Below are positions 26,752 to 58,458 of a stretch of DNA of 64,000 nt, one piece after another. Source of the DNA: Planctomycetota bacterium. GTDB lineage: Bacteria; Planctomycetota; Phycisphaerae; WQYP01. The notes under the pieces are model-generated. The model searched no databases. It worked only from the letters and a program-made list of their open reading frames with translations, and had not been told where the DNA came from. The translations under genes were made by a program, and so were the position numbers. How positions within the stretch are numbered: position 1 is the first letter of the stretch; the number at the start of each line of letters is the position of its first letter. The stretch covers positions 380 through 64,379 of the forward strand of contig JAKBMM010000011.1 of NCBI GenBank assembly GCA_021831565.1. The letters are read 5' to 3'.

Positions 26752-26760
26752 GGGGCCACC

Positions 26761-27917: not shown

Positions 27918-27928
27918 TTTGAACCGGA

Positions 27929-36592: not shown

Positions 36593-36746
36593 GTAACCGT
36601 TCACGCCCCGGATGTTTTTCGCGTACATCCCGGCGGGCACGGGTTTTCCCGGTGTGCCGGGACCGCCAATCACCGCGCCGCCCCAGCCACGCAGCCGCGT
36701 GGATCGCAATCCCGCGGCCGTTTTCCGCGCCGCCGTGAACGGTTAC
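36593..36746. mobile_element. 154-bp MITE with 13-bp terminal inverted repeats
   Basis: GTAACCGTTCACG ... CGTGAACGGTTAC; multicopy in this window. Confidence 0.85.
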
Positions 36747-38389: not shown

Positions 38390-38742
38390 TGAAATCAGCG
38401 GAGAGAATAGAATCGCCCGGCGGCTTAACAACCGCCGTTACTCAAGCGGATGTGGAAAAGCTCGCCGCCGGCGGGGCGCCGGATGAGGACATCGCCGACC
38501 TGCTGGACATCAGCCGCTCCCAGCTCAGGAAACGCTTTGGCCGGGCGCTGCGCCGCGGCCGGGCGTCGCTGCGCGTCAATCTGCGCCGCGGTCAGCTTGT
38601 CCTGGCCCTGGGCCGGGCGCCCGACGTGCGCATGCTGCTGTGGCTGGGGCGGCAATATCTGGGCCAGAAGGATGACTCGGCCCCGCCCGGCGCGCCGCCA
38701 TTGGAAAAGACATATCTCAACGTGGACACAGACAAGGTATGA
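38389..38742 (+). CDS. Putative terminase small subunit / HTH protein
   Basis: HTH (EDIADLLDIS) and ML.WLG.QYLGQKD; coupled directly upstream of TerL. Confidence 0.62.
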   Translation: MKSAERIESPGGLTTAVTQADVEKLAAGGAPDEDIADLLDISRSQLRKRFGRALRRGRASLRVNLRRGQLVLALGRAPDVRMLLWLGRQYLGQKDDSAPPGAPPLEKTYLNVDTDKV

Positions 38743-40169
38743 AAAGCTCCCGGCGATCCCGCCGACACCCGGAACCGGATGCGGCCGCGGAAAAAACACC
38801 GGACCGGCTTGATCCCGCACGCCGGCCCTATCGTCCGTGGGGGGCGGCGGAAAAATTATGTTACGCCCGGGACCGCGAAATTCTTCTGGCGGGACCGGCG
38901 GGTACGGGTAAAACCCGCGCCGCCCTGGAAAAAATCTTCCTGTGCCTCCAGAAATATCCCGCCATGCGCGCCTTGCTGGTCCGAAAAACGCGGGCCAGCC
39001 TCACCCAGTCCGTCCTGGTCACCCTGGAGGAAAAAGTTTTTCCTCGGGGGCATCCGGCGCTGGGCGGTCCCGGCCGCGGCTACCGGCACGGTTACCGATT
39101 GGAAAACGGCGCCGAGTTGGTGCTCGGCGGGCTGGACAACCCCGATCGGATCATGTCCAGCGAATACGACATGGTGCTGGCCTGCGAAGCCACCGAATTG
39201 ACCATCGAAGACTGGGAAAAACTTCTCACCCGCCTGCGAAACGCCGTGCTGCCCTACCAACAGGCCATCGCCGAATGCAACCCGGCCCATCCCGGCCACT
39301 GGCTTAACGCCCGGGCGGACGCCGGCTTGATGCTGCGTCTCGTGAGCCGGCATCAGGATAATCCGACGCTTTTCGATCGCTCCACCGGACGCTGGACCGG
39401 CGCCGGCGAGAACTATTTGCATACGTTGCGGCGGCTTTCCGGAGTGCGGCGCAAACGGCTGCTCGACGGCCTCTGGGCGGCGCCGCAGGGGCTGGTTTAT
39501 GAAATGCTGCCCGATCACGTGATTTCCATTCCGCCGCCGCAAGGCCGAACGCTTCGCTGTTACGCCGGCATCGACTGGGGTTGGCGTGATCCCACCGCGG
39601 TAGTGGTCGGCCTGTTGTGCCGGGATTCGTGCCTGTACGTGGTGGACGAGCTTTATGAAAGCCGCCTGCCGCTGGAGGAATTGGCCCGCCGGCTCGACGC
39701 GTTGGTGCGGCGATGGGATATCGAGATATTTTTTGCCGACCGCTCGCGGCCGGAATTGATAGACCATCTCCGCCGGCGCGACATTGCCTGCCGGCCCGTC
39801 CCGGCGCACGGCATTGAATCCGGTATTGCCATGGTCGAATCGCGCCTGCTGGCGGGGGGGTTGAAGATTTCCGCCCGCTGCCGCCGGCTCATCGACGAAG
39901 CGAGCCAATACCAATATGCGGCCGATGCTCCAACCACGGGCAACTCCCTTCCCATACCCCTTAACGATCACGCCATGGATGCCCTGCGTTACCTGGTGGC
40001 GGCGATGGATATGGGCCGCTCCGATCCCGCCGCGTTCGAGCCGGTTTCTTCCGTCGCCTCCCTCCCGTCGTCCGCGCCGAAAAGTGCCGCAGGAGATTTG
40101 CCAAACGCCGCTATGGAGAATACCCGTTCGCACGAGCGATTGAATTTCAACCAAATATGGGGAGAATAA
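38739..40169 (+). CDS. Terminase large subunit (PBSX-like)
   Basis: GPAGTGKT, VRKT..SL, G.D.P..I.S.E, EATE, CNP; nuclease motifs GIDWG..DP, AD.S.P and DHAMDALRY. Confidence 0.88.
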   Translation: MKSSRRSRRHPEPDAAAEKTPDRLDPARRPYRPWGAAEKLCYARDREILLAGPAGTGKTRAALEKIFLCLQKYPAMRALLVRKTRASLTQSVLVTLEEKVFPRGHPALGGPGRGYRHGYRLENGAELVLGGLDNPDRIMSSEYDMVLACEATELTIEDWEKLLTRLRNAVLPYQQAIAECNPAHPGHWLNARADAGLMLRLVSRHQDNPTLFDRSTGRWTGAGENYLHTLRRLSGVRRKRLLDGLWAAPQGLVYEMLPDHVISIPPPQGRTLRCYAGIDWGWRDPTAVVVGLLCRDSCLYVVDELYESRLPLEELARRLDALVRRWDIEIFFADRSRPELIDHLRRRDIACRPVPAHGIESGIAMVESRLLAGGLKISARCRRLIDEASQYQYAADAPTTGNSLPIPLNDHAMDALRYLVAAMDMGRSDPAAFEPVSSVASLPSSAPKSAAGDLPNAAMENTRSHERLNFNQIWGE

Positions 40170-40183
40170 AGGTGAATGTAGAG

Positions 40184-40274
40184 CAAGGAAAACGGTGTTT
40201 AACGGGTCAGCCTGCTGACCGTGTCACCAAGGAAAACGGTGTTTAACGGGTCAGCCTGCTGACCGTGTCACCAA
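40184..40274 (+). repeat. Two tandem 44-bp hairpin repeats
   Basis: CAAGGAAAACGGTGTTTAACGGGTCAGCCTGCTGACCGTGTCAC twice, directly upstream of truD. Confidence 0.9.
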
Positions 40275-40294
40275 TAAAACTCGGCGGTATAGGT

Positions 40295-41590
40295 ATGCCC
40301 CATTCCTATTTAACGGCTGACCTGCCCGGCGTGGGCGGGCTTATCAAGGCTCAGCCGGACGATTTTCTCGTGGAAGAGTTGCCGCTCTATCCGCCCGCCG
40401 GCCAGGGCGCCCACTGTTATTTTGTCATTGAAAAGCGTGGAATTTCCACGCTGCACGCCGCGAACCTGCTGGCCCGGGCGCTGGGACGCCGGGCGATCGA
40501 CATCGGCTACGCCGGCCTGAAAGATGCACAAGCCGTGGCCCGCCAGACATTCTCGATTGAACTGGAAACCGAAGATCGAATCCGCTCTCTGAGCCTGCCC
40601 CAAGTGCGCATCCTGGAGGTTTCCCGCCATCGCAACAAGCTTAAAATCGGCCACCTGGCGGGCAATCGCTTCACCGTTAAAATCCGCAACGACGACTGGG
40701 CCAAACCCGGCGGTTCGGTGGAAGAGGCCCGCCTCCGGGCGCGGGCGACGCTGGATTCTCTGGGTCGTAGCGGCGTGCCGAATTTTTTCGGTCCGCAGCG
40801 CTTCGGTATGCGCGGCGATAATCATTGGTTGGGCGCGGCGCTGTTGCGCGGCCAAAGTGAAGAATTTCTGCGGCGCTGGCTGGGCGAACCGGACCCGCGG
40901 GTGGATCATGGCCCGGTGCTCCAGGCGCGCCGCCACTTTGCCCATGGCCGGATGGACCTTGCCTTGGCCGACTGGCCCGGTCATTTGTCCATGGAACGCC
41001 GGGCGTTGGCTATCCTCGCCCGCAATCCCGCCCACGGCGCGCGGGCCATGCGGTCGGTTGACGTGCGTCTCAAACGCCTGCTGGTCAGCGCGCTCCAGGC
41101 GCATCTGTTCAATGAAACCCTGCTTCGCCGGCTCAAGCGGCTGGATCGAATTCTCCCCGGCGACCTGGCTTGGAAGCACGACAACGGCGCGGTGTTTGAG
41201 GTGGGAATGTCACAGCTCCACGCCGCCGCCGAACAGCCGCGTTGCGACGCCCATGAAATTTCTCCCTCCGGTCCCATGTTCGGCTACCGCATGACGCCGG
41301 CGCAGGGCGAGCCGGGACAAATGGAGGACGAAGTCCTCGCCGCCCACGAGCTTACGCCGCGGAGTTTTCATCAACCACGATTTGCCGCCGGCGGGAGCGG
41401 CGCTGCGGGGGGGGCGGAAAAATCCAAAGGCTCCCGGCGGGCAATGCGTTTTTTCCCGACCGAACTGGACCTCGCCTCCGGCGCGGACCAGCGCGGGCCG
41501 TTCCTGCAGCTTCGTTTTGTGCTGCCGCCGGGGTGTTTCGCCACCGTTCTGCTCGGCGAGATCATGAAAACCGACCTGGCGGTGGATTAG
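40295..41590 (+). CDS. truD: tRNA pseudouridine(13) synthase TruD
   Basis: DF.VEE, AGLKDA.AV..Q, GHL.GNRF, PNFFGPQRFG and F.LP.G.FAT. Confidence 0.93.
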   Translation: MPHSYLTADLPGVGGLIKAQPDDFLVEELPLYPPAGQGAHCYFVIEKRGISTLHAANLLARALGRRAIDIGYAGLKDAQAVARQTFSIELETEDRIRSLSLPQVRILEVSRHRNKLKIGHLAGNRFTVKIRNDDWAKPGGSVEEARLRARATLDSLGRSGVPNFFGPQRFGMRGDNHWLGAALLRGQSEEFLRRWLGEPDPRVDHGPVLQARRHFAHGRMDLALADWPGHLSMERRALAILARNPAHGARAMRSVDVRLKRLLVSALQAHLFNETLLRRLKRLDRILPGDLAWKHDNGAVFEVGMSQLHAAAEQPRCDAHEISPSGPMFGYRMTPAQGEPGQMEDEVLAAHELTPRSFHQPRFAAGGSGAAGGAEKSKGSRRAMRFFPTELDLASGADQRGPFLQLRFVLPPGCFATVLLGEIMKTDLAVD

Positions 41591-41736
41591 CGGCGCCGCC
41601 GCAGCTCTACTGTCAACTGTTCACCTGCTCTACTTTCTCGCGGCGCAGCCGCGGGGGACGCAGAGGTCGCAGAGGTTTATTTTTATTGGTGACACGGTCA
41701 GCAGGCTGACCCGTTAAACACCGTTTTCCTTGTGCT

Positions 41737-42567
41737 CTATTGTCTACTTTCAACTGTTCTACTTTCTCGCGGCCTTGCCGCGTGCTCTACTATCTTTCTC
41801 CGCCGCGTCAGCAATCCCAACCCGCCCACCGCCAGCAAGGCCGCCGTAGCCGGTTCGGGGATCGTTTCCGTCGGGAACTCGGTCTTCGTGGTTCCAGTGT
41901 ATTTCTGCACGTTCGCCTTGGGCGATAGCGTAAAGTCCACCACATTCGTGAGCGAATAAGCCAACTGCGTTTTGTTGAGCGTTACCAGCGGCGGTGGGGC
42001 AAGCGTGAAAGTCTCGGAGTTGCCGGAGTATGACTCGGAACTTATCCCTGTTGCGGCGACGCCCGTTCCGGATGTCGTGTTCTGTCCGTTATACGGATCG
42101 GCGAAGCTCTGCATGGTCATGGCGAGAGTGCCTTTGGCGAATTCCCCGTCGCCGCTTTGAGCAAGAATCAGGGTGAAGGAGGAATTGGCGCCGGGACCCG
42201 TCAGGCCGGTATCTCCCAGGAGCAGCTCCAGGCTGGCTGTCGATGAGGTATTATTATTGGTCAAGTTGCGCGTGGCGAAGGTGATATAAGACGATGAGGA
42301 CGTGGCGATGATCGTCGCGTCTACGGCGCCCGAAAAGTCGCCGAATGAAAAGGTCCCGGAGCTTGGATAGTTAAAAAACGTGGAAGTGGTGTCCACGACG
42401 TTCACCAGTGCGCCCCCGTTGACGCTGGATTCGGACAGATCAAGTTCAAAATCAGCTTTGGCGCTTGTCGATGGGAGTAATGCGGCACCCGCCGCCAGAG
42501 ACAGGAAAACGATTCCCGGAACCAAAGTTCCCTTAAGGATCAGCCGGAACCTTGCCGCCGTGGTCAT
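41737..42567 (-). CDS. PEP-CTERM protein, paralog of 46813..47592
   Basis: Signal peptide; S/T-rich body; IPEPATAALLAVGGLGLLTRRRK. Confidence 0.9.
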   Translation of the reverse strand: MTTAARFRLILKGTLVPGIVFLSLAAGAALLPSTSAKADFELDLSESSVNGGALVNVVDTTSTFFNYPSSGTFSFGDFSGAVDATIIATSSSSYITFATRNLTNNNTSSTASLELLLGDTGLTGPGANSSFTLILAQSGDGEFAKGTLAMTMQSFADPYNGQNTTSGTGVAATGISSESYSGNSETFTLAPPPLVTLNKTQLAYSLTNVVDFTLSPKANVQKYTGTTKTEFPTETIPEPATAALLAVGGLGLLTRRRKIVEHAARPRESRTVESRQ

Positions 42568-42692
42568 GATGTGTCTCCTTGTATGGAGAGTGGCGGTATC
42601 CCCGCCCGCGGCGCCGCCGCCGCTCTGCGCTCAACTTTCTACTCTCCCGCTGCTCTACTTTCAACTATATACTTTCTTCCGCGGCGACGCAT

Positions 42693-42814
42693 TAGCAGCC
42701 TGTCGGACTTAGGACATGCTTGCCAGCAATGCTAACGTAGGAGGCATGAGTACGACACGAATGGTAAATGTAGATCGGAACACACCAATGCTGTTGCCCC
42801 CGGATCTGCGTGAC
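42693..42814 (+). mobile_element. Truncated IS1182-family element (left end and transposase N-terminus)
   Basis: AGGAGG RBS, then ATG 42746 MSTTRMVNVDRNTPMLLPPDLRD, resembling the IS1182 start (DR..x.LLPP.L.DW); cut off by a repeat. Confidence 0.65.
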
Positions 42815-43060
42815 TTATCCCGAACATTTCACCGCCGAGACGCAGAGATCGCAGAGGTTTATTTTTATTGGTGACACGGTCAGCAGGCTGACCCTTTAAA
42901 CATTATCCGCTTCCACCCTCCGCGTTCCTCTGTTTCCTCCGCGGTGCAAACTCGATTTACCGGACGTTATTTACCGCGGACGCGGAGTACCGCAGAGGTT
43001 TATAGCTTGTTAACCATCCGCGCGGTCTTGGCGTCTTGGCGGTTAATTCCGTGTGAACAC

Positions 43061-44293
43061 TTACCAACTTTCCACTCTCTTCCGCCTTCGCGCCAGCAGT
43101 CCCATTCCGCCCACGGCCAGCAAAGCCAGCGTGGCCGGTTCGGGTGTGGATAGGCTGAAGATCGTGCCGTAATCGCTGCTTCCGCCATGGAGGGTCATTC
43201 CATACAAGGTCGAGCCGGATTGGATCAGCGAGCCGTAGGGCCATGCGCCATCCGCGGCCCCGCCGGTAAATGAATGCAGGACCTGAAAGCCGGTTCCAAT
43301 GTCGGCGATGGAAAAGATCGTGCCATCACCGCCTCCGCCATTGGAGGTCATTCCATACAGGGTCGAACCGGATTGGATCAGCGAGCCGAGGGGACCTGCG
43401 CCATCCGCGCCGGTAAATGAATGCAGAAGCGTAATAGGTCCCCCGGCGGCAGGGATGGAAAAGATCGTGCCGAAATTGCCGCTTCCGCCGGCGTAGGTCA
43501 TTCCATACAAAGTCGAGCCGGATTGAATCAGCGAGCCCCAGAGGGGATATGCGCCATCCGTGGCCCCGCCGGTAAATGAATGCAGAAGCGTAACGGTTCC
43601 CCCGGTGTAAGGTATGGAAAAGATCGTGCCGAAATTGCTACTTCCGCCGGCGGAGGTCATCCCATACAAGGTCGAGCCGGATTGGATCAGCGAGCCTTGG
43701 GGATATTTGCCATACGTGAATGAATGCAGAAGAGAATCGGCTCCACCGGTGTCAGGTATGGAAAAGATCGTGCCGGTAGCAGCGCTCCCGCCACTGGTGG
43801 TCATCCCATACAAAGTCGAGCCGAATTGGATCAGCGAGCCGTAGGGATTTTCGCCGTCCGCGGACCCGCCGGTAAATGAATGCACAAGCGTAGGGTTCCC
43901 ACCACTGGTGCTCTCGGAAAAGATCGTGCCATAATTGCCGCTTCCGCCAAAGAGGGTCATTCCATACAAGGTCGTACCCGATTGGATCAGCGAGTCCCAG
44001 GGATTTGCGCCATCCGCGGTCCCGCCGGTAAAGGAATGCAGAAGCGTAAAACTATTTCCAGTGTCCGCGATGGAAAAGATCGTGCCTTTATTATTGCCGC
44101 TTCCGCCATCGGAGGTCATTCCATACAAGGTCGAGCCGGATTGGATCAGCGCGCCTCTGGGATATGCGCCATCCGCGGTCCCGCCGGTAAATGAATGCAG
44201 CACCTGAAAATTGCTGGCTTGGGCATAACCGACCCCCGCCGCCAACGCGCCGCATAATCCGGTTGCCAGCATTGCCTTTTGAATCGTTTTCAT
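43061..44293 (-). CDS. PEP-CTERM protein with 7 GloVer (TIGR03803-like) repeats
   Basis: Seven LHSF.G...GA.P...LIQSGSTLYGMT..GG....GTIFS units; TPEPATLALL tail. Confidence 0.9.
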   Translation of the reverse strand: MKTIQKAMLATGLCGALAAGVGYAQASNFQVLHSFTGGTADGAYPRGALIQSGSTLYGMTSDGGSGNNKGTIFSIADTGNSFTLLHSFTGGTADGANPWDSLIQSGTTLYGMTLFGGSGNYGTIFSESTSGGNPTLVHSFTGGSADGENPYGSLIQFGSTLYGMTTSGGSAATGTIFSIPDTGGADSLLHSFTYGKYPQGSLIQSGSTLYGMTSAGGSSNFGTIFSIPYTGGTVTLLHSFTGGATDGAYPLWGSLIQSGSTLYGMTYAGGSGNFGTIFSIPAAGGPITLLHSFTGADGAGPLGSLIQSGSTLYGMTSNGGGGDGTIFSIADIGTGFQVLHSFTGGAADGAWPYGSLIQSGSTLYGMTLHGGSSDYGTIFSLSTPEPATLALLAVGGMGLLARRRKRVESW

Positions 44294-44562
44294 GGTTTTC
44301 TCCCTAATGTCCATAGACGACCAGCAGGCTGGCCGGTTAACCAAATTTACTTTCCGACTCGCACCGCTCGCGGCTTTGCCGGCGCATTATCCCGAACATT
44401 TCACCGCCGAGACGCAGAGGTCGCAGAGGTTTATTTTTATTGGTGACACGGTCAGCAGGCTGACCCGTTAAACACAGTTTTCCTTGTGCTCTACTTTCTT
44501 TCGCCGCAGCCCGGCCCGTGCATGCCACGGGCCGGGCCAAGTTGAATAGCTTGAATAGCCGT

Positions 44563-45570
44563 TCAAGCTATTGCCTTCCGCCTGCGCTTAAGCAGCAATC
44601 CCAACCCGCCCACGGCCAGCAAAGCCAGCGTGGCCGGTTCGGGGACAGTGCCAAGCTGCGCTGACACGTTGTCAATTGCCAGGTTGTTGCCGGCAAAATT
44701 AGTTTGCCAGTTGGTGGGCCAGAGGTAATTGGTGCCACCGAGAGTGGAACTTGGCGCTCCGTTCGGAAAATTAAGTGCCGCGGTAGTCAGAAGACCACCT
44801 GTGAGCCCTAGTTGATTGCCTGAATTATCGTAAACCGCAAAAGCAACACCGGCGGGATCGGTAGTACCATTACCTGTTTTGCTATATGCCAGAGTAAAGG
44901 TATACCAGCCGTTCTTGGTGATTGTGACAAAAGGCGTGTTTGGCGTGGTGCCGCCGTTTGCATTCACATCTACAGTTCCCGCAGTTGGCACGGTGAATTG
45001 AAAATCGGACTCCGTCGCCCAGTTCGGGGCGCCAGTGGTATCACTTGCGGTTTCGTCGATCTCGAAAGCAGTACCACCACCAGTAGGCGGCGCCCACGCC
45101 CCGGTCCCGGTAACAGGCACATAAACACTCACAGATTGAGTAAATGCACCGGGATAAGTAGCCATCATGCCGGCGTATGCAGGGGTATCAGTGGAAGTGC
45201 CGAATAGGCTGTAACCCGCGTCGCCTCCATTGTGAATGTTGCCATTGATATTATTTCCAAGCACCGCATAGGAGGAGCTACCGCCGGCGCCGCCAATCAA
45301 ACCAAGTGGTGATGTGCCATTACCACTACCCGGTCCATATCGGGTGATGGAATAAGTGCCGGTACTTGTTGCCACACTTTGGCTCTGACCTATGCCTGTG
45401 GCTGTGCCGCTAAACCACCAACCGCTTACACCATTGGCTGAATTTTCATATCCTCTGGAATAAGGAACATCCGCCTTGATGATTCCGGCGGACAACAGGG
45501 CTATTCCCGCCGCCGCCGCAGCGCCTAAGCCGAGCATGGTTTTGGTTGAGGATGATTTGTTCTTAAACAT
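44563..45570 (-). CDS. PEP-CTERM protein (MFKNKSSSTK leader family)
   Basis: Signal peptide and VPEPATLALLAVGGLGLLLKRRRKAIA. Confidence 0.9.
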   Translation of the reverse strand: MFKNKSSSTKTMLGLGAAAAAGIALLSAGIIKADVPYSRGYENSANGVSGWWFSGTATGIGQSQSVATSTGTYSITRYGPGSGNGTSPLGLIGGAGGSSSYAVLGNNINGNIHNGGDAGYSLFGTSTDTPAYAGMMATYPGAFTQSVSVYVPVTGTGAWAPPTGGGTAFEIDETASDTTGAPNWATESDFQFTVPTAGTVDVNANGGTTPNTPFVTITKNGWYTFTLAYSKTGNGTTDPAGVAFAVYDNSGNQLGLTGGLLTTAALNFPNGAPSSTLGGTNYLWPTNWQTNFAGNNLAIDNVSAQLGTVPEPATLALLAVGGLGLLLKRRRKAIA

Positions 45571-45788
45571 GGTTTACTCCTTAATGTCCATAGATGGCCA
45601 GCAGGCTGGCCGGTTTACCAAACCGACTCGCAACACGCGGGTCGGAACTTTCCTGTGGCAGGCTTTCTCGCCTGCGTTTGTTTTCGCGGGCACTCGCGCC
45701 CGCCTATCCCATAGCCGCTCCGCTGTGCCTCCTTTCGCGGCTTTGCCGCCGCTCTACTTTCAACTTTCTACTCTCTTTCGCCGGCGCA

Positions 45789-45955
45789 TTAGCCCCAACA
45801 TTTCACCGCCGAGGTTGTTGAAATGAAAGACCATATAGAGATTCTTTCCCACAACACCTCAGATACAGACTCTTTGCCATCTCATCATTTCTATCCATTT
45901 ACTCCACCGTGGCCTCAGCGCACTCTGCGCCTCTGCGGTGCAAACTCCGGGTTAG
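45789..45955. mobile_element. TTAG-flanked MITE-like element
   Basis: Related to 34879-35074; flanked by 56-bp imperfect direct repeats of a PEP-CTERM gene tail. Confidence 0.6.
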
Positions 45956-45977
45956 CGGCTTTGCCGCCGCTCTACTT

Positions 45978-46691
45978 TCAACTCTCTACTCTCTTCCGCC
46001 GCCGCATTAGCAATCCGAGTCCGCCCAGAGCCAGCAGCGCCAGCGTGGCCGGTTCGGGGGCGGTGGTTGTATAGCTGAGGGTGACATTCGATCCGCCCGC
46101 CAGGCTCAGTTCCAGGGTATTACCCATGGAAAAGGGATTGCTTCCATTGGGACTGAACCCAGCCGTTTGCTGAACCAGTGTCTGCGTTTGGGGAAAACCG
46201 CCGCTTGAATAGGTCACGGTGTATGAAGGCGTCTGCACCGGCGGCGGCGTGGTCAGAGAGAATTGGCCGTCGGCCGAGTCGGCGCCGCTGACATAAGTGG
46301 CGGAGTCGCCGCTGGTGGCGGCATTGAACGTCACGCTGCCGGAACCGGCCAGGGTCATGGAGGAGCCGACCGGCGAGAAACCGGTATCCCATAAATTGAT
46401 CGCCAATATATCGGGCCCCACTGTCGTGTCAGTATTCTTTACGCCCACACTAATGGCACTGATCTGCGGCGTATTCGAAGAGCCGGAATTGGATGTGGCG
46501 TCGTAGATGGTGATGTCAAATGTGCCGACCGTAACATTCGACTGATTAATAACGCCGCCACTGCCCGTGAAACTGGTAATTGGGCCGCCGTTGGCTTCGA
46601 ACTGCGCCACAAAGCTCGCCTGGGCCGCCGAGGCGGCCAAACTCATCGCTGCCGCGGCGAGCACCATAGATCCGAAAATCTTGAATTGCAT
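45978..46691 (-). CDS. PEP-CTERM protein
   Basis: Signal peptide ending AQA; APEPATLALLALGGLGLLMRRRK. Confidence 0.9.
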   Translation of the reverse strand: MQFKIFGSMVLAAAAMSLAASAAQASFVAQFEANGGPITSFTGSGGVINQSNVTVGTFDITIYDATSNSGSSNTPQISAISVGVKNTDTTVGPDILAINLWDTGFSPVGSSMTLAGSGSVTFNAATSGDSATYVSGADSADGQFSLTTPPPVQTPSYTVTYSSGGFPQTQTLVQQTAGFSPNGSNPFSMGNTLELSLAGGSNVTLSYTTTAPEPATLALLALGGLGLLMRRRKRVES

Positions 46692-46812
46692 AAAAAACTC
46701 CCTTGTAAAAAGCATTGTTATTTTTTCTTGGTGACACGGTCAGCAGGCTGACCCGTTAAACATCGTTTTCCTTGTGCTCTACTTTCTCGCGGCTTTGCCG
46801 CGTGCTCTACTT

Positions 46813-47592
46813 TCAACTCTCTACTCTCTTTCTCCGCCGCGCCAGCAATCCGAGTCCGCCCACAGCCAGCAACGCCAGTGATGCCGGTTCGGGGATTGTT
46901 CCCGACGGGTTCTCGGTCAGCGTGGTCCCGTTGTAGTTGAGCTGGCTTACATTTATGTTTGCCCCGGATGATAGCGTGATGTCCACCACATTCGTGAGCG
47001 AATAGTCCAACTGTGTTTTGGTCAGCGTCGCCGTGGTCGGATTCGATAAAAGCGTGAAAGATACGGGGCTGGTGGTGTTGTTTGTCAATGATAACACCGA
47101 GCTTACCGGTGTCGCGGCGACGCCCGATCCGGATGTCGTGTTCTGGCCGTTATGCGGATCGGCGAAGCTCTGCATGGTCATGGTGAGAGTGCCGTTGGTG
47201 AGTTCACCGCCGCCGCTTTGGGCGAGTTCTAGAGTGCCGGTATTTGTGGGGCCGGGTCCCGTAAAACCTGTATCTCCCAGGAGCAGTTCTATGGTGGCTG
47301 GGTTTGGGCCCGTGTTATTATTGGTCAGGTTGATCGTGGCGAAGGTGATGTAACCCGACGACGCGCCGGCGGCGGGATCATTGGTTGCCGCGCTTACGGA
47401 TCCCGAAAAACCGCCGAATCCACCGGTGGGGGTGGAATAGGACAAAGAGGTGGACGGAGTACTTGCTACGTTCACCAGTGTGCCCCCGCTGGGCACGGCC
47501 AGATCAAGTTCAAAAGCAGCTTTCGCGCTGTTCGGCAGAAGCAACGCCGCGCCCGCCGCCAGGCATAAAATTTTCACTGTGATGTTTGGCAT
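46813..47592 (-). CDS. PEP-CTERM protein, paralog of 41737..42567
   Basis: Shares YITFAT.NLTNNN, ELLLGDTG and MTMQSFADP.NGQNTTSG; IPEPASLALL tail. Confidence 0.9.
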   Translation of the reverse strand: MPNITVKILCLAAGAALLLPNSAKAAFELDLAVPSGGTLVNVASTPSTSLSYSTPTGGFGGFSGSVSAATNDPAAGASSGYITFATINLTNNNTGPNPATIELLLGDTGFTGPGPTNTGTLELAQSGGGELTNGTLTMTMQSFADPHNGQNTTSGSGVAATPVSSVLSLTNNTTSPVSFTLLSNPTTATLTKTQLDYSLTNVVDITLSSGANINVSQLNYNGTTLTENPSGTIPEPASLALLAVGGLGLLARRRKRVES

Positions 47593-47664
47593 GTTAAGAC
47601 TCCTTAAGATTCCTTACATAGTTGTCAGCTACCTCGTGGTAGCCGCGGCATTCCGCCGCGTCGC

Positions 47665-47717
47665 GTAATGCAGGCTTCCAGCCTGCTTATTCCGGCGGGC
47701 GAGACGCCCGCTCCACA
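47665..47717. repeat. REP-like inverted hairpin pair
   Basis: GCAGGCTTCCAGCCTGC and GCGGGCGAGACGCCCGC-TCCACA; a similar hairpin lies at 51106-51132. Confidence 0.45.
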
Positions 47718-47854
47718 ATTCCACAATTCCATTCTCCAGGCTTTTCATGTCTCGGCGGTGAAAGCCCCGAAAACCTTACGCGGCCGTTCCACAAAACCCG
47801 GCGGAGCGGGAGAGTAACGCCCCGCCGGGTCAGAGTGGATATTGGCCGGGCCGT

Positions 47855-48013
47855 TCAAGTGCGATGCCGGCGAATGTCCGGCCACCAGTCGCATTGAACC
47901 ATCATCCAGATCAACCACCCCAGAACCGGCGCCGCCGCCGCCAGTGGCAGGGAAACGATTCGCCGGGCCAAGGGTTGATTCACGCTCATGGAAAACCGTG
48001 CCGTGGTAGTCAT
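47855..48013 (-). pseudogene. Degenerate 5' end of a PEP-CTERM paralog
   Basis: AAGGAG RBS then MTTTARF...L...IVSL.LAA.A..L, resembling the MTTAARF... leader of 41737..42567; stops early with no PEP-CTERM tail. Confidence 0.5.
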
Positions 48014-48182
48014 GACAGTTTTCTCCTTTACGTTTTCCGGGCCCCAGCCCGGCCCGTGTCTCAAAACACGGACCGGGCCATTCTCCCGGCTCGCTGGGGA
48101 CCTGATCCGTACGCGCCGGAATTGAGCCGTTTCTTCGCGGGCGGGGCCTTTTTAAGAGGTTGGCCCACGAAGTCATCAAACT

Positions 48183-48827
48183 TCAAGCCAGGCTTTTATG
48201 GCGACGCCGGACCAGCAATCCCAAGCCGCCCAGGCTTAGCAAACCGAGCGTGGCTGGTTCGGGGGTGGCATACTGGACTCCCTGCGGGCCTACTGTCCCT
48301 GTGTCTATGCCGTCAATGGAAGGTGGTGTCCAGCCGGGGACGCTCGCGTCATTGCTGTTAAGCCAGTTCAACACGAGATCCTGGTTGTTCGCCGAGGTGT
48401 CGTAGATATCGCCCAGATCATAAACATTTGGAAATGGCGAGGCGCTGGCATTACTGCTGTTTAGGATAACATACGGGGGCGTCGAACCAGCTGTTGAAAA
48501 ACTCGACAGATTGCCTTCGGCAACATACGAAGATGTCGATGTGAGCACGCCCCAGCCGCCGGCGGCGTCATACTTCGTCAACGGCTCTTGGTAATTAGCA
48601 ACGAGAAATTGATTAGCGGTGGAAGTTCCGTCAGCAGTCGTAGTGACACCATAACCACCAAATTCGACATTGTTACCCACAAAGAGGGTATCGCCCGTGA
48701 CGGTGTTGACCCAGAGGGTCATCTGTCCGGATGGCGGCGGCGCGAAGCTGTTGCCGGCAAAAGCAGCGCCGGTGGAAAGCATGCATCCCGCGGCCAGCGA
48801 GGCCATAAATGGAAGTTTACGTGACAT
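48183..48827 (-). CDS. PEP-CTERM protein
   Basis: Start MSRKLPF behind AAGGAG; TPEPATLGLLSLGGLGLLVRRRHK. Confidence 0.9.
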   Translation of the reverse strand: MSRKLPFMASLAAGCMLSTGAAFAGNSFAPPPSGQMTLWVNTVTGDTLFVGNNVEFGGYGVTTTADGTSTANQFLVANYQEPLTKYDAAGGWGVLTSTSSYVAEGNLSSFSTAGSTPPYVILNSSNASASPFPNVYDLGDIYDTSANNQDLVLNWLNSNDASVPGWTPPSIDGIDTGTVGPQGVQYATPEPATLGLLSLGGLGLLVRRRHKSLA

Positions 48828-49238
48828 GATTTTCTCCTTATTGTCCATAGACGGCCAGCAGGCTGGCCGGTTTACCCCCGGCTCGCAACACACGAGCCGG
48901 GACGGCCAGCAGGCTGGCCGGTTAACCAACCCGACTCGCAACACGCGGGTCGGAACTTTACTGTGGCAGGCTCTCTCGCCTGCGTTTGTTTTCGCGGGCG
49001 CTATCACCCGCCTATCCCATATCCGCTCCGATGTACCTCCTTTCGCGGCGCTGCCGCCGCTCTACTTTCTTCCGCGCCGCCGCATTAGCCCGAACATTTC
49101 ACCGCCGAGACGCAGAGAGCGCAGAGGTTTATTGGTGACATGGTCAGCAGGCTGACCCGTTAAACACAGTTTTCCTTGTGCTCTACTTTCGCCCCAGCCC
49201 GGTCCGTGCATGCCACGGGCCGGGCTGTGAATAGACTT

Positions 49239-50153
49239 TTAGGCTATTGCCTTGCGTCTGCGTTTGAGCAACAATCCCAATCCGCCCACGGCCAGCAAAG
49301 CCAGCGTGGCCGGTTCGGGGACTACTGCAATGCTGTCCGGGTAATCCAACCCCGTGACCAGTGAGGCATTCACCGTACCGCCGGCAGTGGTATATTCTCC
49401 AATCGTGTTGTTGGCCGTATTCAGCTCAAACAGGTCTGATCCCGAAACGGCAATGCCGTTCGGTTCTCCCAACCCCGTGACCAGAGAGGCGTTCACCGTG
49501 CCGCCCGAGGTGGTATATTCGCCGATCGTGTTGTTGCCTTCATTTGTGACAAACAGGTCTGATCCCGACACGGCAATGCCGGACGGGCCATTCAACCCCG
49601 TGACCAGCGAGGCATTCACTGTGCCGCCCGTGATGGTATATTCGCCGATCGTGTTGTTGCCATAATTCGAGACAAACAGGTCTGAGCCCGAAACGGCAAT
49701 GTCGGTCGGGCTATTCAACCCCGTGACCAGTGAGGCATTCACCGTGCCGCCCGTGATGGTATATTCGCCGATCGTGCTGTTGCCATAATTCGAGACAAAC
49801 AGGTCTGAGCCCGAAACGGCAATGCCGGACGGGCCATTCAACCCCGTGACCAGAGAGGCATTCACCGTGCCGCCCGTGATGGTATATTCGCCCATCGTGC
49901 TGTTGCCATAATTCGCGACAAACAGGTCTGATCCCGAAACGGCAATGCCGTTCGGTTCATCCAACCTCGTGACCAGAGAGGCATTCACCGTACCGCCGGC
50001 ATTGGTATATTCGCCGATCGTGTTATTGGAAAAATTCGTGACAAAGATGTTTCCGCGCGCGCTCGCAGGCATGAGCGCCGAACCCGTCGCTAACGCCGCC
50101 GCGGCGCCTAAGCCGAGCATGATTTTGGTTGAGGATGATTTGTTCTTAAACAT
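49239..50153 (-). CDS. PEP-CTERM protein with six 41-aa NHL-like repeats
   Basis: Six LFV.N....TIGEYT..GGTVNASLVTGL..P..IAV units (123-bp period); MFKNKSSSTK leader. Confidence 0.9.
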   Translation of the reverse strand: MFKNKSSSTKIMLGLGAAAALATGSALMPASARGNIFVTNFSNNTIGEYTNAGGTVNASLVTRLDEPNGIAVSGSDLFVANYGNSTMGEYTITGGTVNASLVTGLNGPSGIAVSGSDLFVSNYGNSTIGEYTITGGTVNASLVTGLNSPTDIAVSGSDLFVSNYGNNTIGEYTITGGTVNASLVTGLNGPSGIAVSGSDLFVTNEGNNTIGEYTTSGGTVNASLVTGLGEPNGIAVSGSDLFELNTANNTIGEYTTAGGTVNASLVTGLDYPDSIAVVPEPATLALLAVGGLGLLLKRRRKAIA

Positions 50154-50210
50154 GGTTTACTCCTTAATGTCCATAGATGGCCAGCAGGCTGGCCGGTTTA
50201 CTTGTTTGTG

Positions 50211-50244
50211 CCGGCCCGGCCCGTGCAAAAACACGGGCCGGGCC
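50211..50244 (-). terminator. GC-rich stem-loop downstream of a PEP-CTERM gene
   Basis: GGCCCGGCCCGTG..CACGGGCCGGGCC; relatives at about 44509-44538, 48046-48079 and 49197-49225; no U-tract, so it may be a stabiliser instead. Confidence 0.45.
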
Positions 50245-50258
50245 AACTTAATAGCCGT

Positions 50259-50987
50259 TTAAGCTATTGCCTTGCGTCTGCGTTTGAGCAGCAATCCCAG
50301 GCCGCCCACGGCCAGCAAAGCCAGTGTGGCCGGTTCGGGAGTGGAGGTGATACTCATTGAACTAATATAGGCGGTTGCATTATTGCCACTTGAGCCATAT
50401 GCGCCAATAGAGGCCCACGCGGCATTTACCATCATATCGCCATAATCAATCCCATTATATGGAGTATCATAAATGCTTGACAACTGCACGTTCTGCTCTG
50501 CCCACGTATAGGTCTTGGTATTCCATACCCCTACTGTTGATGAGCCGTCCAGTGTATAGGCGTTGGTGTTGCTTCCAAAGTTAATGATATCAAAATTGTC
50601 TCCATTGACATCACTGACGCCAAAAAGGGTATACGGCTGGCCAGGTCCCGTAGTACTAGGCACAGTAATAGACATACTGTCATATCTTAGAGCACCTAGA
50701 TTACCATTGTATGCGGGAGGTGTTCCAACCCATGCTTCCGTCCAATAAGCACTATTGGTAATAGTCATAAGAGCGGATCCACCATAACTGCTAGAATAAC
50801 CGGCACTATATGAATCGGTGCCGCCCGTAGTCTTATAACCACCATATGACACGATATTATTTGTCGGAACCCAACCGGTGCCGCTAATTGTCGTTGTATT
50901 CGCAAACAATGACCCGGCTGACAAAAAAGCCGCCGCGGCGCCTAATCCGAGCATGAGTTTGGTTGAGGATGATTTGTTCTTAAACAT
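50259..50987 (-). CDS. PEP-CTERM protein (MFKNKSSSTK leader family), AT-rich body
   Basis: TPEPATLALLAVGGLGLLLKRRRKAIA. Confidence 0.9.
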   Translation of the reverse strand: MFKNKSSSTKLMLGLGAAAAFLSAGSLFANTTTISGTGWVPTNNIVSYGGYKTTGGTDSYSAGYSSSYGGSALMTITNSAYWTEAWVGTPPAYNGNLGALRYDSMSITVPSTTGPGQPYTLFGVSDVNGDNFDIINFGSNTNAYTLDGSSTVGVWNTKTYTWAEQNVQLSSIYDTPYNGIDYGDMMVNAAWASIGAYGSSGNNATAYISSMSITSTPEPATLALLAVGGLGLLLKRRRKAIA

Positions 50988-51275
50988 GGTTTACTCCTTA
51001 ATAATGTCTATAAACGGCCAGCAGGCTGGCCGGTTAACCAGGTATCCTCACCGACCCGCAACACACGGGCCGGGACGGCCAGCAGGCTGGCCGGTTTACC
51101 GGGTCGGCGGCCTGGAAGGCCGCCTCCCATACAGGGGCCGTTCGCATGTCTCTGGCGGGGGGCCGCGTGGGGCGGGGGGAGGAAAGAGGGGTGTGAGTGT
51201 GAGTGTCAGTCAGTGTAAGCGCCCCGAGTGAGCGGCCGCGCGTCAGAGACACGCGAACTATTCAGCGAGCCATAT

Positions 51276-51785
51276 TCAATTGTTTGCTTTTGCCAGTTTC
51301 GTCCCCTTTCGACGCCGCGAGGCGTCCATCCGTTGTGAATAATCGGGTGCGGGCGCCCGCGGTCGCGGTCGGCCGGCGGCAACGGACTCAGTCGCCTGTT
51401 CCACAGCGGCGCCCGCTTTGTTAAGGTCCAGCAGCCCGGCCACCACGGCCGGCGCCTGCTCGCAATCGTTCAGGTAGCAGGTGGCGCCGGCGGCCAGGAC
51501 GGCCCGCTCCAACGCGGGCCGATCCGGCCGGCCGATGGCGACGCACCAAGTGGGTCGCCAGAGCCTTCGCAATCCCCGGATCAAGGTCAGATCGCCGGCG
51601 CCGGCAAGTTCCAGCACGACGACCCGCACCCGGCAACGCGCCACACGGCGAATCAAGGCCTCGATGGCGTCGGTCGGGCCGGGGGTTGCAATCATCCATC
51701 GCCAGTGGGCGGCCAAGGAGCGCAGCTCGCGGCATTGGCCGCGGCTGATCACCAGCACGCTACTGCGAGCCATATCGCCCATCAT
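51276..51785 (-). CDS. Atypical receiver (REC)-like domain protein
   Basis: Alternating beta/alpha pattern with VVVLE, LIR.LR and A..AGA..YL; canonical Asp and Lys absent. Confidence 0.5.
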   Translation of the reverse strand: MMGDMARSSVLVISRGQCRELRSLAAHWRWMIATPGPTDAIEALIRRVARCRVRVVVLELAGAGDLTLIRGLRRLWRPTWCVAIGRPDRPALERAVLAAGATCYLNDCEQAPAVVAGLLDLNKAGAAVEQATESVAAGRPRPRAPAPDYSQRMDASRRRKGTKLAKANN

Positions 51786-51859
51786 TGCCCGTCTCCATAT
51801 CGCGCCGCGGCCACCGTCCCTCCGGCGGTTACGAGCCGCATTGAATAATCAGTTGTATG

Positions 51860-51876
51860 AGCAACAGACGTGCCAC
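51860..51876 (-). promoter_or_regulatory. Sigma54 (-24/-12) promoter
   Basis: Minus strand reads TGGCACGTCTGTTGCT, matching TGGCAC-N5-TTGC. Confidence 0.8.
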
Positions 51877-51989
51877 AGGCCGCCGGCGAATGGGCCATTA
51901 GAGCGCAAGTGCTTATATAGCACTATGTTATAAATATATTGATGATGAATTCGTGTATTTTAGAGCGGGGACCGTCCGCGCCCGGTCCA

Positions 51990-52092
51990 GTACCATTTTG
52001 GTACACGCATGGTGCGAATTATGCGGCCGATAAACACGCAAGGCGGTTTTTGGGAGTCAGTACCATTTTGACGGTCAGTACCATAATGGTAC
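51990..52092. promoter_or_regulatory. Putative enhancer-binding-protein sites
   Basis: GTACCATTTTGGTAC (51990-52004), GTACCATTTTGAC (52060-52072) and GTACCATAATGGTAC (52078-52092), 115-217 bp upstream of the sigma54 site. Confidence 0.7.
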
Positions 52093-52099
52093 ATGCGGT

Positions 52100-52283
52100 C
52101 AAGGAAAACGGTGTTTAACGGGTCAGCCTGCTGACCGTGTCACCAAGTGAACAGTTGACAGGAGAGCTCCAGGAAACGGTGTTTAACGGGTCAGCCTGCT
52201 GACCGTGTCACCAAGTGAACAGGTGACAGGAGAGCACAAGGGAACCGGTGTTTAACGGGTCAGCCTGCTGACCGTGACACCAA
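52100..52283 (+). repeat. Three tandem copies (about 69-bp period) of the GGTCAGCCTGCTGACC hairpin repeat
   Basis: Same unit as 40184-40274; the linkers are nearly identical to each other. Confidence 0.9.
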
Positions 52284-52468
52284 CAAAATAAACCTCTGCG
52301 GCCCCCTGCGTCCCCCGCGGTAAATAACGCGGTGAGCAGGGCACATGGAAATTGATTTACTTTGGGTAGCCGAAATCGCTACAATAAGGGCGACTGGAGA
52401 TTCGGGCGCCAAAAGACCAGGGCGTAACTCCGGGTGGAAAGATTTGCTTTACCGCGAGGTATTCGACC

Positions 52469-52765
52469 ATGATCGGGCCAATCCATGTCATGACGCTTGG
52501 TTTGTTTCAGAACTTTTTCGACGGCCCGGACATTCTGATTGTGGCGCTGGTCGCCCTGCTGTTGTTCGGCAAAAGGCTGCCGGATATCGCCCGCAGCCTG
52601 GGACGAACCATTGTTGAATTCAAAAAGGGTCTTAACCAGACTTCCGATGAAATCAACCGGGCTTCGCAGGAAGATACGCCGCCGGAAAAGCCGACCATTG
52701 CCGCGCCCACCTCGGCGAACCCCCGCCAGATCAAGCAGGTCACCAACGTCAGCGAAGAACCGTGA
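52469..52765 (+). CDS. tatA: Twin-arginine translocase TatA/TatE subunit
   Basis: LLLFG.RLP..ARSLG....EFKKG. Confidence 0.9.
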   Translation: MIGPIHVMTLGLFQNFFDGPDILIVALVALLLFGKRLPDIARSLGRTIVEFKKGLNQTSDEINRASQEDTPPEKPTIAAPTSANPRQIKQVTNVSEEP

Positions 52766-55003: not shown

Positions 55004-55321
55004 GTAACCGTTCACGGCGGCGCGGAAAACGGCCGCGGGATTGCGATCCTCGCGGCTGCCCAATGGTCGCCCCCCCCGCAGCCGTGGATGGAAATCCACG
55101 GCCGTCCGTAACCGCAAACCATCATGCCTCGTAATCCAACCACCGCTCGATTACCAACCACGAGCGTGAAAAGCCGCCCGGAGGTGGACGCAAAACGACC
55201 GCGGGATTCCACCACGCAGATGCATAACCGGGGCGGCGCGGTGATTGGCGGTCCCGGCACACCGGGAAAACCCATGCCCGCCGGGACGTGCGCCAAAAAC
55301 ATCCGGTGCGTGAACGGTTAC
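55004..55321. mobile_element. 318-bp long form of the GTAACCGTTCAC MITE, inverted
   Basis: Same terminal repeats and ends as the 154-bp copies, plus an internal segment. Confidence 0.8.
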
Positions 55322-56739: not shown

Positions 56740-58458
56740 TTGTTGATCGCGCTTTATGCGCTGCCCCTCTTTCTGATATGTCTCGGTACGGGCGCCGCCC
56801 GCGACATGATGGAACTATTCAACCTGATTCCAGTACGCGAGGCTTTCCGCGACGGGCACTGGCTTATACCAACGCTGGGCGGTCTGCCCCGCCTGGTAAA
56901 GCCGCCGCTGCCGGTGTGGATTCCCGCGGGACTCGCGGCGCTGTTTCATAGCGACAACCTCTGGATTCTGCGGATACCCTCGGTGCTGCTGGGTCTGGCC
57001 ACCTGCTGGGGAACGTACGCCATCGGCTGCGTTACCTCCCGTGACCGCCGTCTGGGCCTGTTCGCCGCATTGGCACTGGCCTCCATGGTGGTGTTCATCC
57101 GCCAGTCCCGTCTGGCGTCTTACGATATTTACGCCACCGCCTTTACCACGCTGGGACTCCTGGCCCTGCTGGTTGCCGCCGAACGCCCGCAACGCTGGTG
57201 GCTCTGGTCATCCGCGGCGGGCGTGGCGCTGGGGCTTTCCGTTTTAAGCAAGGGGCCGGTTCCGCCGATGTACGTGTTGCTTCCCTACGGAATATGGCTT
57301 TTGCGCTATCATGTTCGCGAAGTCCGGGTATGGTGGGGACTGGGGTTGGCCCTGCTCGTGTCGGTGGCGGTATTTCTTCCCTGGCTGGTGGCGGTGAACC
57401 AGCAGTACCACGCCCAGTACGGGGGCAACGCCTGGGCGATCTGGACGCGGCAATTCGTACGCTATGTCGCTGCGCCCGGCCGCCAGTACGAACAGACACG
57501 CTGGTATTACCTGGCCATGGTGGGCTGGGTGTTTCCCTGGACACCGGCGATTATCGCGGGGCTGGCCATGCCCTTTTTTCCGACCCGATCCGATCCGGCG
57601 CCGACCAGTCAAGAACGCCGCGGCCGTTGGCTTTTCTGGTTGATCCTGGTGCTGGGACTGGCGCTGCTGACAATTCCCCATCAGAAAAAGCAGCGCTACG
57701 CCCTGCAACAGTTTCCCTTCGCGGCGCTGCTGATCGGGGCGGTATGGCAGGAATTTGCCCGCCTGCGCAAAGAATCGCCGCTGGAAGCGCCGGCGAAAAT
57801 TTTGTTGGCCGCCCAGGCGATTTTGATGGCCGGCATCGGTATTGGAATCGCGGTGCTGATTCCCTTGATCTTGTTTGCCCATCGCGCCTCGTCTTTCCAG
57901 ACAAGCCCTTGGACACTTATGCAAACGCTGGCCGTACTCAGGCCGGGGCTGGCCGTGCTCGGGCCGGTTGGCTGGGGACTCCTGGCCATGCTGCTGATGG
58001 CCCTGGGCGTGGGGGTATGGCGGTGGCAGTTTCAGCGGCGGTTTAATCGGGCTTTTCTGGCTTATGCCGCCGCCGGCTGGCTGTTCATGTTCGGTTGTTA
58101 CTGGGCGTACGCCGCCGGAAAGGGTTATCAAGTCAGCCGTTACCGTAAGCCCACAAAACAAATGGTGCAACTCGCCGGCGGCCATACCATATATACATTG
58201 ACCGGCGATGAGCCGTGGCTGGGAGTGTTATATTACGCCAACGAAATTTTGCCGCAGGTAACGCCCGCCGAGTTGCGGGCGATTGCCGCCAAAAATCCGC
58301 AGCAGCCGATTTTTGTGCTCACACGCGACAAGCCGCCATTCAAGGCGGACATCGCCGGTGTTCGCCGGGCGACGCGCCGCCATGGCCGCGTGCTCGATAG
58401 GATCAACGACGGCCATTATCGACAAACGCTCTTTGAGCTGTTGCCGGCCGGTTCGTAA
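56740..58458 (+). CDS. ArnT/GT39-like membrane glycosyltransferase
   Basis: G.WL.P, KPPL..W, R.PS, L.KGP, PW and RY; the frame is open back to a CTG at 56650, so the start is uncertain. Confidence 0.82.
   Translation: MLIALYALPLFLICLGTGAARDMMELFNLIPVREAFRDGHWLIPTLGGLPRLVKPPLPVWIPAGLAALFHSDNLWILRIPSVLLGLATCWGTYAIGCVTSRDRRLGLFAALALASMVVFIRQSRLASYDIYATAFTTLGLLALLVAAERPQRWWLWSSAAGVALGLSVLSKGPVPPMYVLLPYGIWLLRYHVREVRVWWGLGLALLVSVAVFLPWLVAVNQQYHAQYGGNAWAIWTRQFVRYVAAPGRQYEQTRWYYLAMVGWVFPWTPAIIAGLAMPFFPTRSDPAPTSQERRGRWLFWLILVLGLALLTIPHQKKQRYALQQFPFAALLIGAVWQEFARLRKESPLEAPAKILLAAQAILMAGIGIGIAVLIPLILFAHRASSFQTSPWTLMQTLAVLRPGLAVLGPVGWGLLAMLLMALGVGVWRWQFQRRFNRAFLAYAAAGWLFMFGCYWAYAAGKGYQVSRYRKPTKQMVQLAGGHTIYTLTGDEPWLGVLYYANEILPQVTPAELRAIAAKNPQQPIFVLTRDKPPFKADIAGVRRATRRHGRVLDRINDGHYRQTLFELLPAGS

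Follow-up and report, generated by a model that had tools for sequence, protein, structure and literature searches.

The 64,000-nt stretch of DNA analyzed in this study (hereafter, the window) is part of a contig (C50; GenBank JAKBMM010000011.1, positions 380–64,379) of a Phycisphaerae genome assembly comprising 86 contigs (2.81 Mb, 59% G+C), and it contains 17 copies of a short hairpin, most of which lie within an array of PEP-CTERM genes. These hairpins are probably (we estimate a probability of approx. 0.78) repetitive extragenic palindromes (REPs) of a superfamily tied to one clade of Y1/HUH nucleases, resembling REP-associated tyrosine transposases (RAYTs), in this Phycisphaerae family. 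The initial annotation, made from the sequence alone, had proposed either an undescribed cis-regulatory RNA or a single-strand recombination site, and had regarded hairpins that flank a RAYT transposase as ordinary REPs. Such an arrangement was found: hairpins with the same head, geometry and loop surround RAYT genes in this genome and in its relatives. The proposal of a recombination site came close, since REPs are single-stranded DNA substrates of RAYT nucleases, while the regulatory RNA was not supported by comparison with Rfam, by folding, by an orthologous leader, by orientation or by the existence of an antisense sister subfamily.

Sixteen exact matches to GGYCAGCCTGCTGRCC were found in the window, between positions 40205 and 52273, where none were expected (100 dinucleotide-preserving shuffles). 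A further copy, at 44319, carries a single mismatch (CTGGTC), which places a G.T pair in the stem. The 17 copies in two stem forms described at the outset were thus recovered, ten with a GGTCAG stem (type A) and seven with a GGCCAG stem (type B). The layout of the core is GTTTAACG-GGTCAG-CCTG-CTGACC in type A and TAAACC-GGCCAG-CCTG-CTGGCC in type B; as the initial annotation had claimed, the central CCTG is invariant (17/17 copies) and the T-A to C-G change in the stem is compensated throughout. The TWAAC-S head that it had defined is present in 16 of the 17 copies, the one at 42878 reading TTTAAAG. The 16-nt cores of type A start at 40205, 40249, 41696, 42878, 44450, 46738, 49142, 52121, 52189 and 52258; the coordinates first given for this form mark the start of a longer conserved module and not that of the core. 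No further copy was detected in the rest of the window, where a site at 63508, with two mismatches, resembles a chance match.

Twelve copies lie on the minus strand within the PEP-CTERM array and five on the plus strand (two before truD and three approx. 200 nt before tatA), in agreement with the orientation noted previously. The genes concerned were confirmed by Pfam: a terminase-like gene (38739–40169), truD (40265–41590), tatA (52469–52765) and eight PEP-CTERM genes on the minus strand between 41737 and 50987. The individual features are as follows.

40184–40272, plus strand: two head-to-tail type A modules (cores 40205–40220 and 40249–40264) between the terminase-like gene and truD.
Approx. 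40295, plus strand: in-frame ATG, the likely start of truD.
41686–41733, minus strand: type A module (core 41696–41711) between truD and the convergently oriented PEP-CTERM gene 41737–42567.
42868–42915, minus strand: type A module (core 42878–42893) with the variant head TTTAAAG, approx. 310 nt upstream of the PEP-CTERM gene ending at 42567.
44294–44344, minus strand: type B leader cassette (core 44319–44334, the G.T variant) with a Shine-Dalgarno site behind it, immediately preceding the ATG at 44293.
44440–44487, minus strand: type A module (core 44450–44465); gene 44563–45570 has a GC-rich hairpin after its stop codon, and the module is located downstream of that hairpin.
45571–45655, minus strand: type B leader, composed of the hairpin CCGACCCGCGTGTTGCGAGTCGG, GGTAAACC, the core (45596–45611) and a Shine-Dalgarno site, before the ATG at 45570.
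46728–46775, minus strand: type A module (core 46738–46753), the end of the core being separated by 46 nt from the probable ATG (46691) of a downstream PEP-CTERM gene.
48828–48945, minus strand: two head-to-tail type B copies (cores 48853–48868 and 48904–48919) with a second hairpin between them, before the ATG at 48827.
49132–49179, minus strand: type A module (core 49142–49157).
50154–50204, minus strand: type B leader cassette (core 50179–50194) before the ATG at 50153.
50988–51102, minus strand: two head-to-tail type B copies (cores 51016–51031 and 51077–51092) before the ATG at 50987.
52100–52283, plus strand: three head-to-tail type A modules (cores at 52121, 52189 and 52258; period 68–69 nt), approx. 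200 nt upstream of tatA.

Comparison of all copies together with their flanks revealed that types A and B are two different elements whose contexts are unrelated. Copies of the window sit in shared blocks, and the 17 are not independent events. Their restriction to the 40–52 kb region, noted initially, holds inside the window but not in the genome as a whole, which contains 30 exact cores and one variant; 14 of the exact cores, all of type A, are located on ten other contigs. All 31 copies are intergenic, judged by gene boundaries that were crude open reading frame (ORF) calls with starts set by Shine-Dalgarno sites and Pfam domain limits.

The candidate partner of these hairpins is encoded on contig C71. 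The gene product (192 aa) is a Y1/HUH protein with an HVH motif and a Y motif, which matched Pfam Y1_Tnp (26.1 bits; cut-off 23) and the NCBIfam family REP_Tyr_transpos (REP-associated tyrosine transposase; E 7.5e-17). Among solved structures, a profile built from seven orthologues matched E. coli TnpA-REP (4ER8) best, though weakly (E 0.029). On both flanks of the gene there are inverted clusters of palindromes beginning GTTTAGCG, one of which reads GTTTAGCG-GGCGGG-CCTG-CCCGCC, and another hairpin, TAAACC-GGCCAC-CCTG-GTGGCC, is located 440 nt from the gene. They share with types A and B the position of the tag, the stem length (6 bp) and the CCTG loop. Inverted copies around a RAYT gene were found for this superfamily at C71, at a paralogue in the related genome G003 (contig C32) and at G038:C91. 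In the case of the G003 paralogue, both flanks carry inverted doublets of TAAGCC-GGCCAC-CCTG-GTGGCC. A second RAYT paralogue (G000:C19:2900–3900; 54% identical to the C71 protein) was rejected as a partner, both of its flanks being occupied by a different repeat of approx. 60 nt (CGTATGGCGCCAAGCCGGGCCGCCGCGAC...). A Y1_Tnp gene on contig C65 has its own, different palindrome.

The same architecture is over-represented in the genome. Among perfect hairpins with a 6-bp stem and a 4-nt loop, 58 have the loop CCTG, compared with a mean of 13 per loop sequence, and in 38 of these 58 the tag T[TA]A[AG]C[CG] stands directly 5′ of the stem. The family was defined by the head together with the CCTG loop, because the head combined with any hairpin was not enriched relative to scrambled heads (79 versus 90, 75 and 52 matches). 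An unpaired foot tag of this type was also found in relatives. RAYT orthologues are present in 20 of 40 related genomes, and 11 of their loci (33.5 kb) contain 19 sites composed of TTAGC[CG] and a hairpin, against a background of 0.0135 per kb measured in the window's own genome.

A covariance model (R1), built from 31 copies and searched against 30 relatives, gave 49 matches in the genome of origin; it found matches in 10 of 15 relatives with a RAYT gene and in none of 15 without one, counts that are rough (150 first-look candidates were scored per genome) and come from related, non-independent genomes. The matches in relatives read T[TA]AGC[CG], a 6-bp stem enclosing CCTG (sometimes CTTG or CCCG), and GCGT. 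Two relatives (G001 and G018) contain the exact type B core preceded by a TAAGC head. All six stem pairs have changed on both sides, with 97.9% of cells paired, a count that is partly circular because the rows were chosen for pairing.

Before the model was available the motif appeared to be strain-specific, as the exact pattern with the AAC head had given one stray site in 60 relatives. This view was overturned by the covariance model: the TAAGC- and TTAGC-tagged copies of the relatives had been hidden because the AAC head was required. The same exact pattern gave 15 single sites in 185,579 species genomes and 11 in JGI metagenomes; these had unrelated flanks and were read as chance. A loose pattern (TTAGCS...GCG) gave fewer matches than its control in four relatives and was uninformative.

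A sister subfamily (type C; GGTTAGCC-GCGGGA-CCTG-TCCCGC-GCGT) was identified at C85:16900–22500 and C8:4827. In antisense orientation, it closely precedes the first codons of four prepilin-type (GFTLIEL) genes. CGCCAAGA and GCGGAGGCGCGGAG repeat modules surround this subfamily.

If the nuclease acts like E. coli TnpA-REP, its target would be single-stranded DNA folded into a hairpin, along with the tag at the foot of this hairpin. We propose that recognition of both structure and tag is the reason why the stem changes in compensated pairs while the tag and the loop are fixed. Two subfamilies with A for G in the tag (types A and B) would have multiplied in this genome: type A chiefly by traveling within a miniature inverted-repeat transposable element (MITE)-like unit and within a larger intergenic block of mosaic structure, and type B inside one PEP-CTERM array, in a shared leader copied or homogenized together with the genes.

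Besides the rough counts and the partial circularity mentioned above, several observations weigh against the assignment of the hairpins to a RAYT-linked REP family. The C71 protein falls below the curated NCBIfam cut-off (61.6 versus 80 bits), and its single sequence, searched against solved structures, gave no match with an E value of 0.01 or below. RAYT genes were not found to have an exact type A or B copy beside them, the nearest approach being TAAACC-GGCCAC-CCTG-GTGGCC, 440 nt from the C71 gene, and the tags differ (TTAA/TAAA in types A and B versus TTAG/TAAG in the REPs beside RAYT genes). The link between the two types and RAYT rests for this reason on shared architecture and on co-occurrence across genomes. 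None of the four clusters of the window contains the inverted doublets typical of REP-derived palindromic doublets (REPINs) or bacterial interspersed mosaic elements (BIMEs), which were seen only beside the RAYT genes of relatives; all four are head-to-tail, with spacings of 44, 51, 61 and 68–69 nt. The tag T[TA]AGC[CG] (TTAAC/TAAAC in types A and B) is not one of the canonical REP tags, GT[AG]G or CGTC, and the fixed distance of type B from the start codons of divergent genes, described below, would also fit selection for a function of the leader.

Type A is a dispersed module of 44–65 nt, composed of CAAGGAAAACGGTGTTTAACG, the core and GTGTCACCAA(TAAAAATAAA), which is mostly located far upstream of the next gene, and in two cases after a GC-rich hairpin behind the preceding stop codon. 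Twelve of the 14 copies outside the window occupy the middle of a unit of approx. 330 bp bounded by 13-bp inverted repeats (GTAACCGTTCACG / CGTGAACGGTTAC). There are 119 matches to the repeat GTAACCGTTCACG, on 53 contigs of the genome. The basic form of this MITE-like element is approx. 154 bp long; composite forms (approx. 320–330 bp) have a variable central cargo, which is the type A module in 12 of them. Several copies lie at contig ends, as would be expected of repeats that interrupt an assembly. The copies of this element in the window are the following.

36593–36746: MITE-like element.
55004–55321: composite MITE-like element, with other cargo at the position where type A sits elsewhere.
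58455–58608: MITE-like element.

In the PEP-CTERM array, four type A copies are located within larger shared blocks of approx. 85 to 200 nt. In the region 41600–49240 (minus strand) and on contigs C7, C70 and C73, the long intergenic regions contain mosaics of type A and other short repeats: GAAAGTAGAGC / AGTTGAMAGTAGA units, AAACCTCTGCGAYCTCTGCGTC followed by GGCGGTGAAATGTTCGGG, and a GC hairpin with a 12-bp stem after stop codons.

Exact copies of type B were, in a search of the whole genome, confined to the PEP-CTERM array of the window. They form part of a leader of approx. 85 nt, which consists of a second hairpin (CCGRCYCG...CGRGYCGG), GGTWAACC, the core, RTCTATGGACATTAAGGAG and the ATG. 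The five copies that the initial annotation had placed close to start codons were confirmed as type B cores ending 25–28 nt before the ATG of five PEP-CTERM genes, approx. 11–14 nt before AAGGAG (GGGAG in one leader). The 55 nt preceding the ATG are 80–91% identical across these five genes, while the encoded proteins are approx. 30–43% identical locally. This fixed position before divergent genes could be the result of gene conversion or of selection, and for this reason a co-opted leader function has been kept as the main rival explanation: type B would be a REP that now serves as a cis-regulatory signal shared by the five genes, either as a stem-loop of the 5′ untranslated region acting on mRNA stability or translation, or as an operator for a dimeric regulator. 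Such co-option concerns function and is compatible with a REP origin; we regard it as rather unlikely. Paralogues of two of the five genes located elsewhere (C61:222 and C69:288) lack type B, which speaks for it, as does the upstream cis-regulatory DNA that PEP-CTERM genes of Proteobacteria reportedly have in common (PMC1569441). It is opposed by the occurrence of type B before only 5 of the 39 PEP-CTERM matches of the genome, and by the leader of an orthologue in the nearest relative (G001, of the same genus). This gene, one of a group whose products begin with MFKNK, retains the leader layout, the neighboring hairpins and the Shine-Dalgarno site; the type B hairpin was not found in its leader, and the corresponding place is occupied by a sequence that is unique in that genome and forms a 5-bp hairpin.

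The three MFKNK paralogues of the window (44563–45570, 49239–50153 and 50259–50987; minus strand) have the first 10 residues (MFKNKSSSTK) and the last approx. 25 residues in common and differ in their middle parts, one of which contains NHL repeats, in a cassette-like layout of constant ends and variable middle. A second PEP-CTERM family (C1:17689 and 18988; G001:C9:8634–11786) has another conserved leader with a hairpin of its own, kept in both genomes of the genus and ending ...TTCTTTGTGAGGAGGAATTTCC before the ATG (TTCCTTATAGGGAGGAATTTCC in one copy).

The folding results also bear on co-option, and on the regulatory RNA proposed initially. A single copy of type A or B folds no better than shuffled sequences (z approx. 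−1.7), and for the single-copy type B leader (z −1.71) the minimum-energy fold lacks the 6-bp hairpin. Two tandem type B copies (48828–48945) can pair into one long hairpin (z −4.3). These tests covered single copies and the tandem type B pair. The Rfam comparison suggested in the initial annotation identified no family: there were no matches at the gathering score in the whole window, and the region 39900–52600 gave, at E up to 1, one weak match (Pseudomon-groES, E 0.47).

The uniform sense orientation that the initial annotation had noted holds for the window, where every copy is on the strand of its neighboring genes (17/17), and was not borne out genome-wide. Among eight informative copies outside the window, five were sense and three antisense; the neighbors of the antisense copies were confirmed by Pfam in all three cases, and among those of the sense copies only two PEP-CTERM genes were confirmed. 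We attribute the orientation in the window to the copying of blocks together with genes, and not to any property of the element itself.

A contig from a metatranscriptome library matched positions 48490–49322 without differences, spanning one type A copy and both type B copies before gene 48827. The copies at 48853–49157 thus probably occur in RNA, which favors co-option, but the contig yields neither strand nor 5′ ends. A secondary effect on the fate of the mRNA would be possible for these copies, given this contig, and type B could have a secondary role in leaders. The same RNA run left eleven bins over 39900–44563 empty that were covered by DNA runs; stretches without RNA-library cover are not evidence of silence.

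The same contig argues against another explanation, in which the palindrome is a mere spacer within a promoter of the extracytoplasmic function (ECF) sigma type (AAC, 16 nt, CGT) and each copy drives the downstream gene. If the element served only as a promoter, a gap would be expected at the copies, barring read-through, and the contig crosses both type B copies and type A. The idea arises from the spacing: in types A and B, exactly 16 nt separate AAC from CGT (which reads CAT in three copies), and the implied transcription start would lie approx. 18–20 nt before the ATG in the type B leaders. The sister subfamilies nevertheless read AGC, not AAC, and a number of copies are antisense or are directed into the 3′ ends of genes. 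A scan for sigma-70 promoters and terminators found nothing at the hairpin motif. At most one of 15 sigma-70-family genes has a comparable motif upstream, a weak one, so an autoregulated ECF promoter of the AAC-16-CGT type is not indicated. We consider such a promoter very improbable.

We also consider it very improbable that the hairpins are recombination sites bracketing PEP-CTERM genes as cassettes, with genes being gained, lost or rearranged through RAYT or a different single-strand recombinase. In its favor, each array gene is accompanied by a hairpin on at least one side, always in the same orientation, and the ends of the three MFKNK paralogues are constant while their middles vary. Furthermore, a contig from another metagenome (X12) joins position 50178 to 51016, exactly between two type B copies, with one gene removed. 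This joint lies within approx. 85 nt of near-identical leader and 5′ coding sequence, and homologous recombination or assembly collapse explains it equally well; in three metagenome runs, DNA contigs are interrupted or make jumps at the repeats, and their joints are unusable as evidence of mobility. A known parallel, the integron attC site, is likewise an imperfect hairpin acting as single-stranded DNA, present once per gene and in one orientation along a gene array. By eye, the RYYYAAC-like heptamer of type A has no matching GTTRRRY partner and no paired R″/R′ core sites were seen, an integron integrase not having been searched for. Moreover, the elements described here are scattered through the genome, and the gene to which they are tied encodes a Y1/HUH protein instead of an IntI-type tyrosine recombinase.

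Domestication of a REP subfamily, in which type B, at its fixed distance from the ribosome-binding site, has become a shared RNA or operator switch of the five divergent PEP-CTERM genes, and with them of part of the cell-surface protein repertoire, and, together with type A, perhaps a set of cassette borders for reshuffling by RAYT, seems to us unlikely. If true, variation of surface proteins in Planctomycetota would be connected with a selfish family of hairpins.

Upstream DNA shared by PEP-CTERM genes reportedly has a sigma-54 site; no GG-N10-GC spacing of this kind was seen by eye in our motif. The likeness to that DNA (Haft et al. 2006, PMC1569441) lies in single genes behind long intergenic regions with a conserved upstream sequence. 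The motif of the window differs in preceding few of the PEP-CTERM genes and in occurring also beside unrelated genes and in MITE-like elements.

The favored assignment to a RAYT-linked REP family can be set against the REP/RAYT systems ("REPtrons"; E. coli yafM, PDB 4ER8; PMC2817692, PMC3733652, PMC6006769). Common to both are short hairpins outside genes whose 5′ foot bears a conserved, unpaired tag, several subfamilies per genome, a Y1/HUH gene between inverted copies (here at the level of the superfamily), co-occurrence of hairpin and gene, and stems that covary while tag and loop are kept. Apart from the tag, our elements differ in their low copy number (in the tens), in the head-to-tail clusters of the window, in that types A and B do not flank RAYT, and in a RAYT that scores under the NCBIfam cut-off. 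In the same sources, REPs are sorted by GTAG or CGTC tags and are described as mostly downstream of genes and plausibly transcribed (PMC3733652); GT[AG]G tags are found in most TnpA-REP subclasses, a CnGA foot is found in class 3, mainly from Planctomycetes, and subclass 2.6 has atypical structures (PMC6006769). In the literature that we searched, Phycisphaerae and repetitive extragenic palindromes were not named together in any paper, and the supplementary tables of PMC6006769 may list related tags.

The BIMEs and REPINs of E. coli and Pseudomonas (PMC3116915, PMC3337134) similarly combine REPs with other short modules in long intergenic regions. Tandem type B copies, able to pair into a long hairpin, and the inverted doublets at the G003 RAYT paralogue resemble them. 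The partners in the window are nevertheless direct repeats of a near-perfect palindrome, and type A rides in a MITE-like element bounded by terminal inverted repeats.

A striking pattern is thus explained by a known kind of element, which spares effort on a supposed riboswitch-like RNA. What would be added to this kind is a REP superfamily, associated with a RAYT clade of Phycisphaerae, in which a non-canonical tag (T[TA]AGC[CG]) is combined with a conserved CCTG loop, as well as REPs carried inside a MITE-like element and REPs in the leaders of surface-protein gene arrays. These leaders are the one place where a function of the hairpin could merit testing.

Several other features of the window were recorded. 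The gene directly before truD (38739–40169, plus strand) is a lone phage terminase large-subunit-like gene (Pfam Terminase_3 and NCBIfam PBSX-type, both weak matches), and two ORFs just upstream of it matched no family. At 14334–29188 there is a cluster with markers of arsenosugar biosynthesis, including an ArsS radical SAM protein and a large fusion with TIGR04282 and TIGR04283 glycosyltransferase domains; several of the neighboring genes match families named for (seleno)proteins (YciW-related, DsbD/TsoB-like and type III SQR-like). A HepT/MntA-like (type VII) toxin-antitoxin pair, both members matching under curated cut-offs, is located at 13365–14223 (minus strand). Finally, the region 40–13242 (plus strand) contains two very large ORFs, the first ending at 8886, with autotransporter-type beta-strand repeats (TIGR02601).

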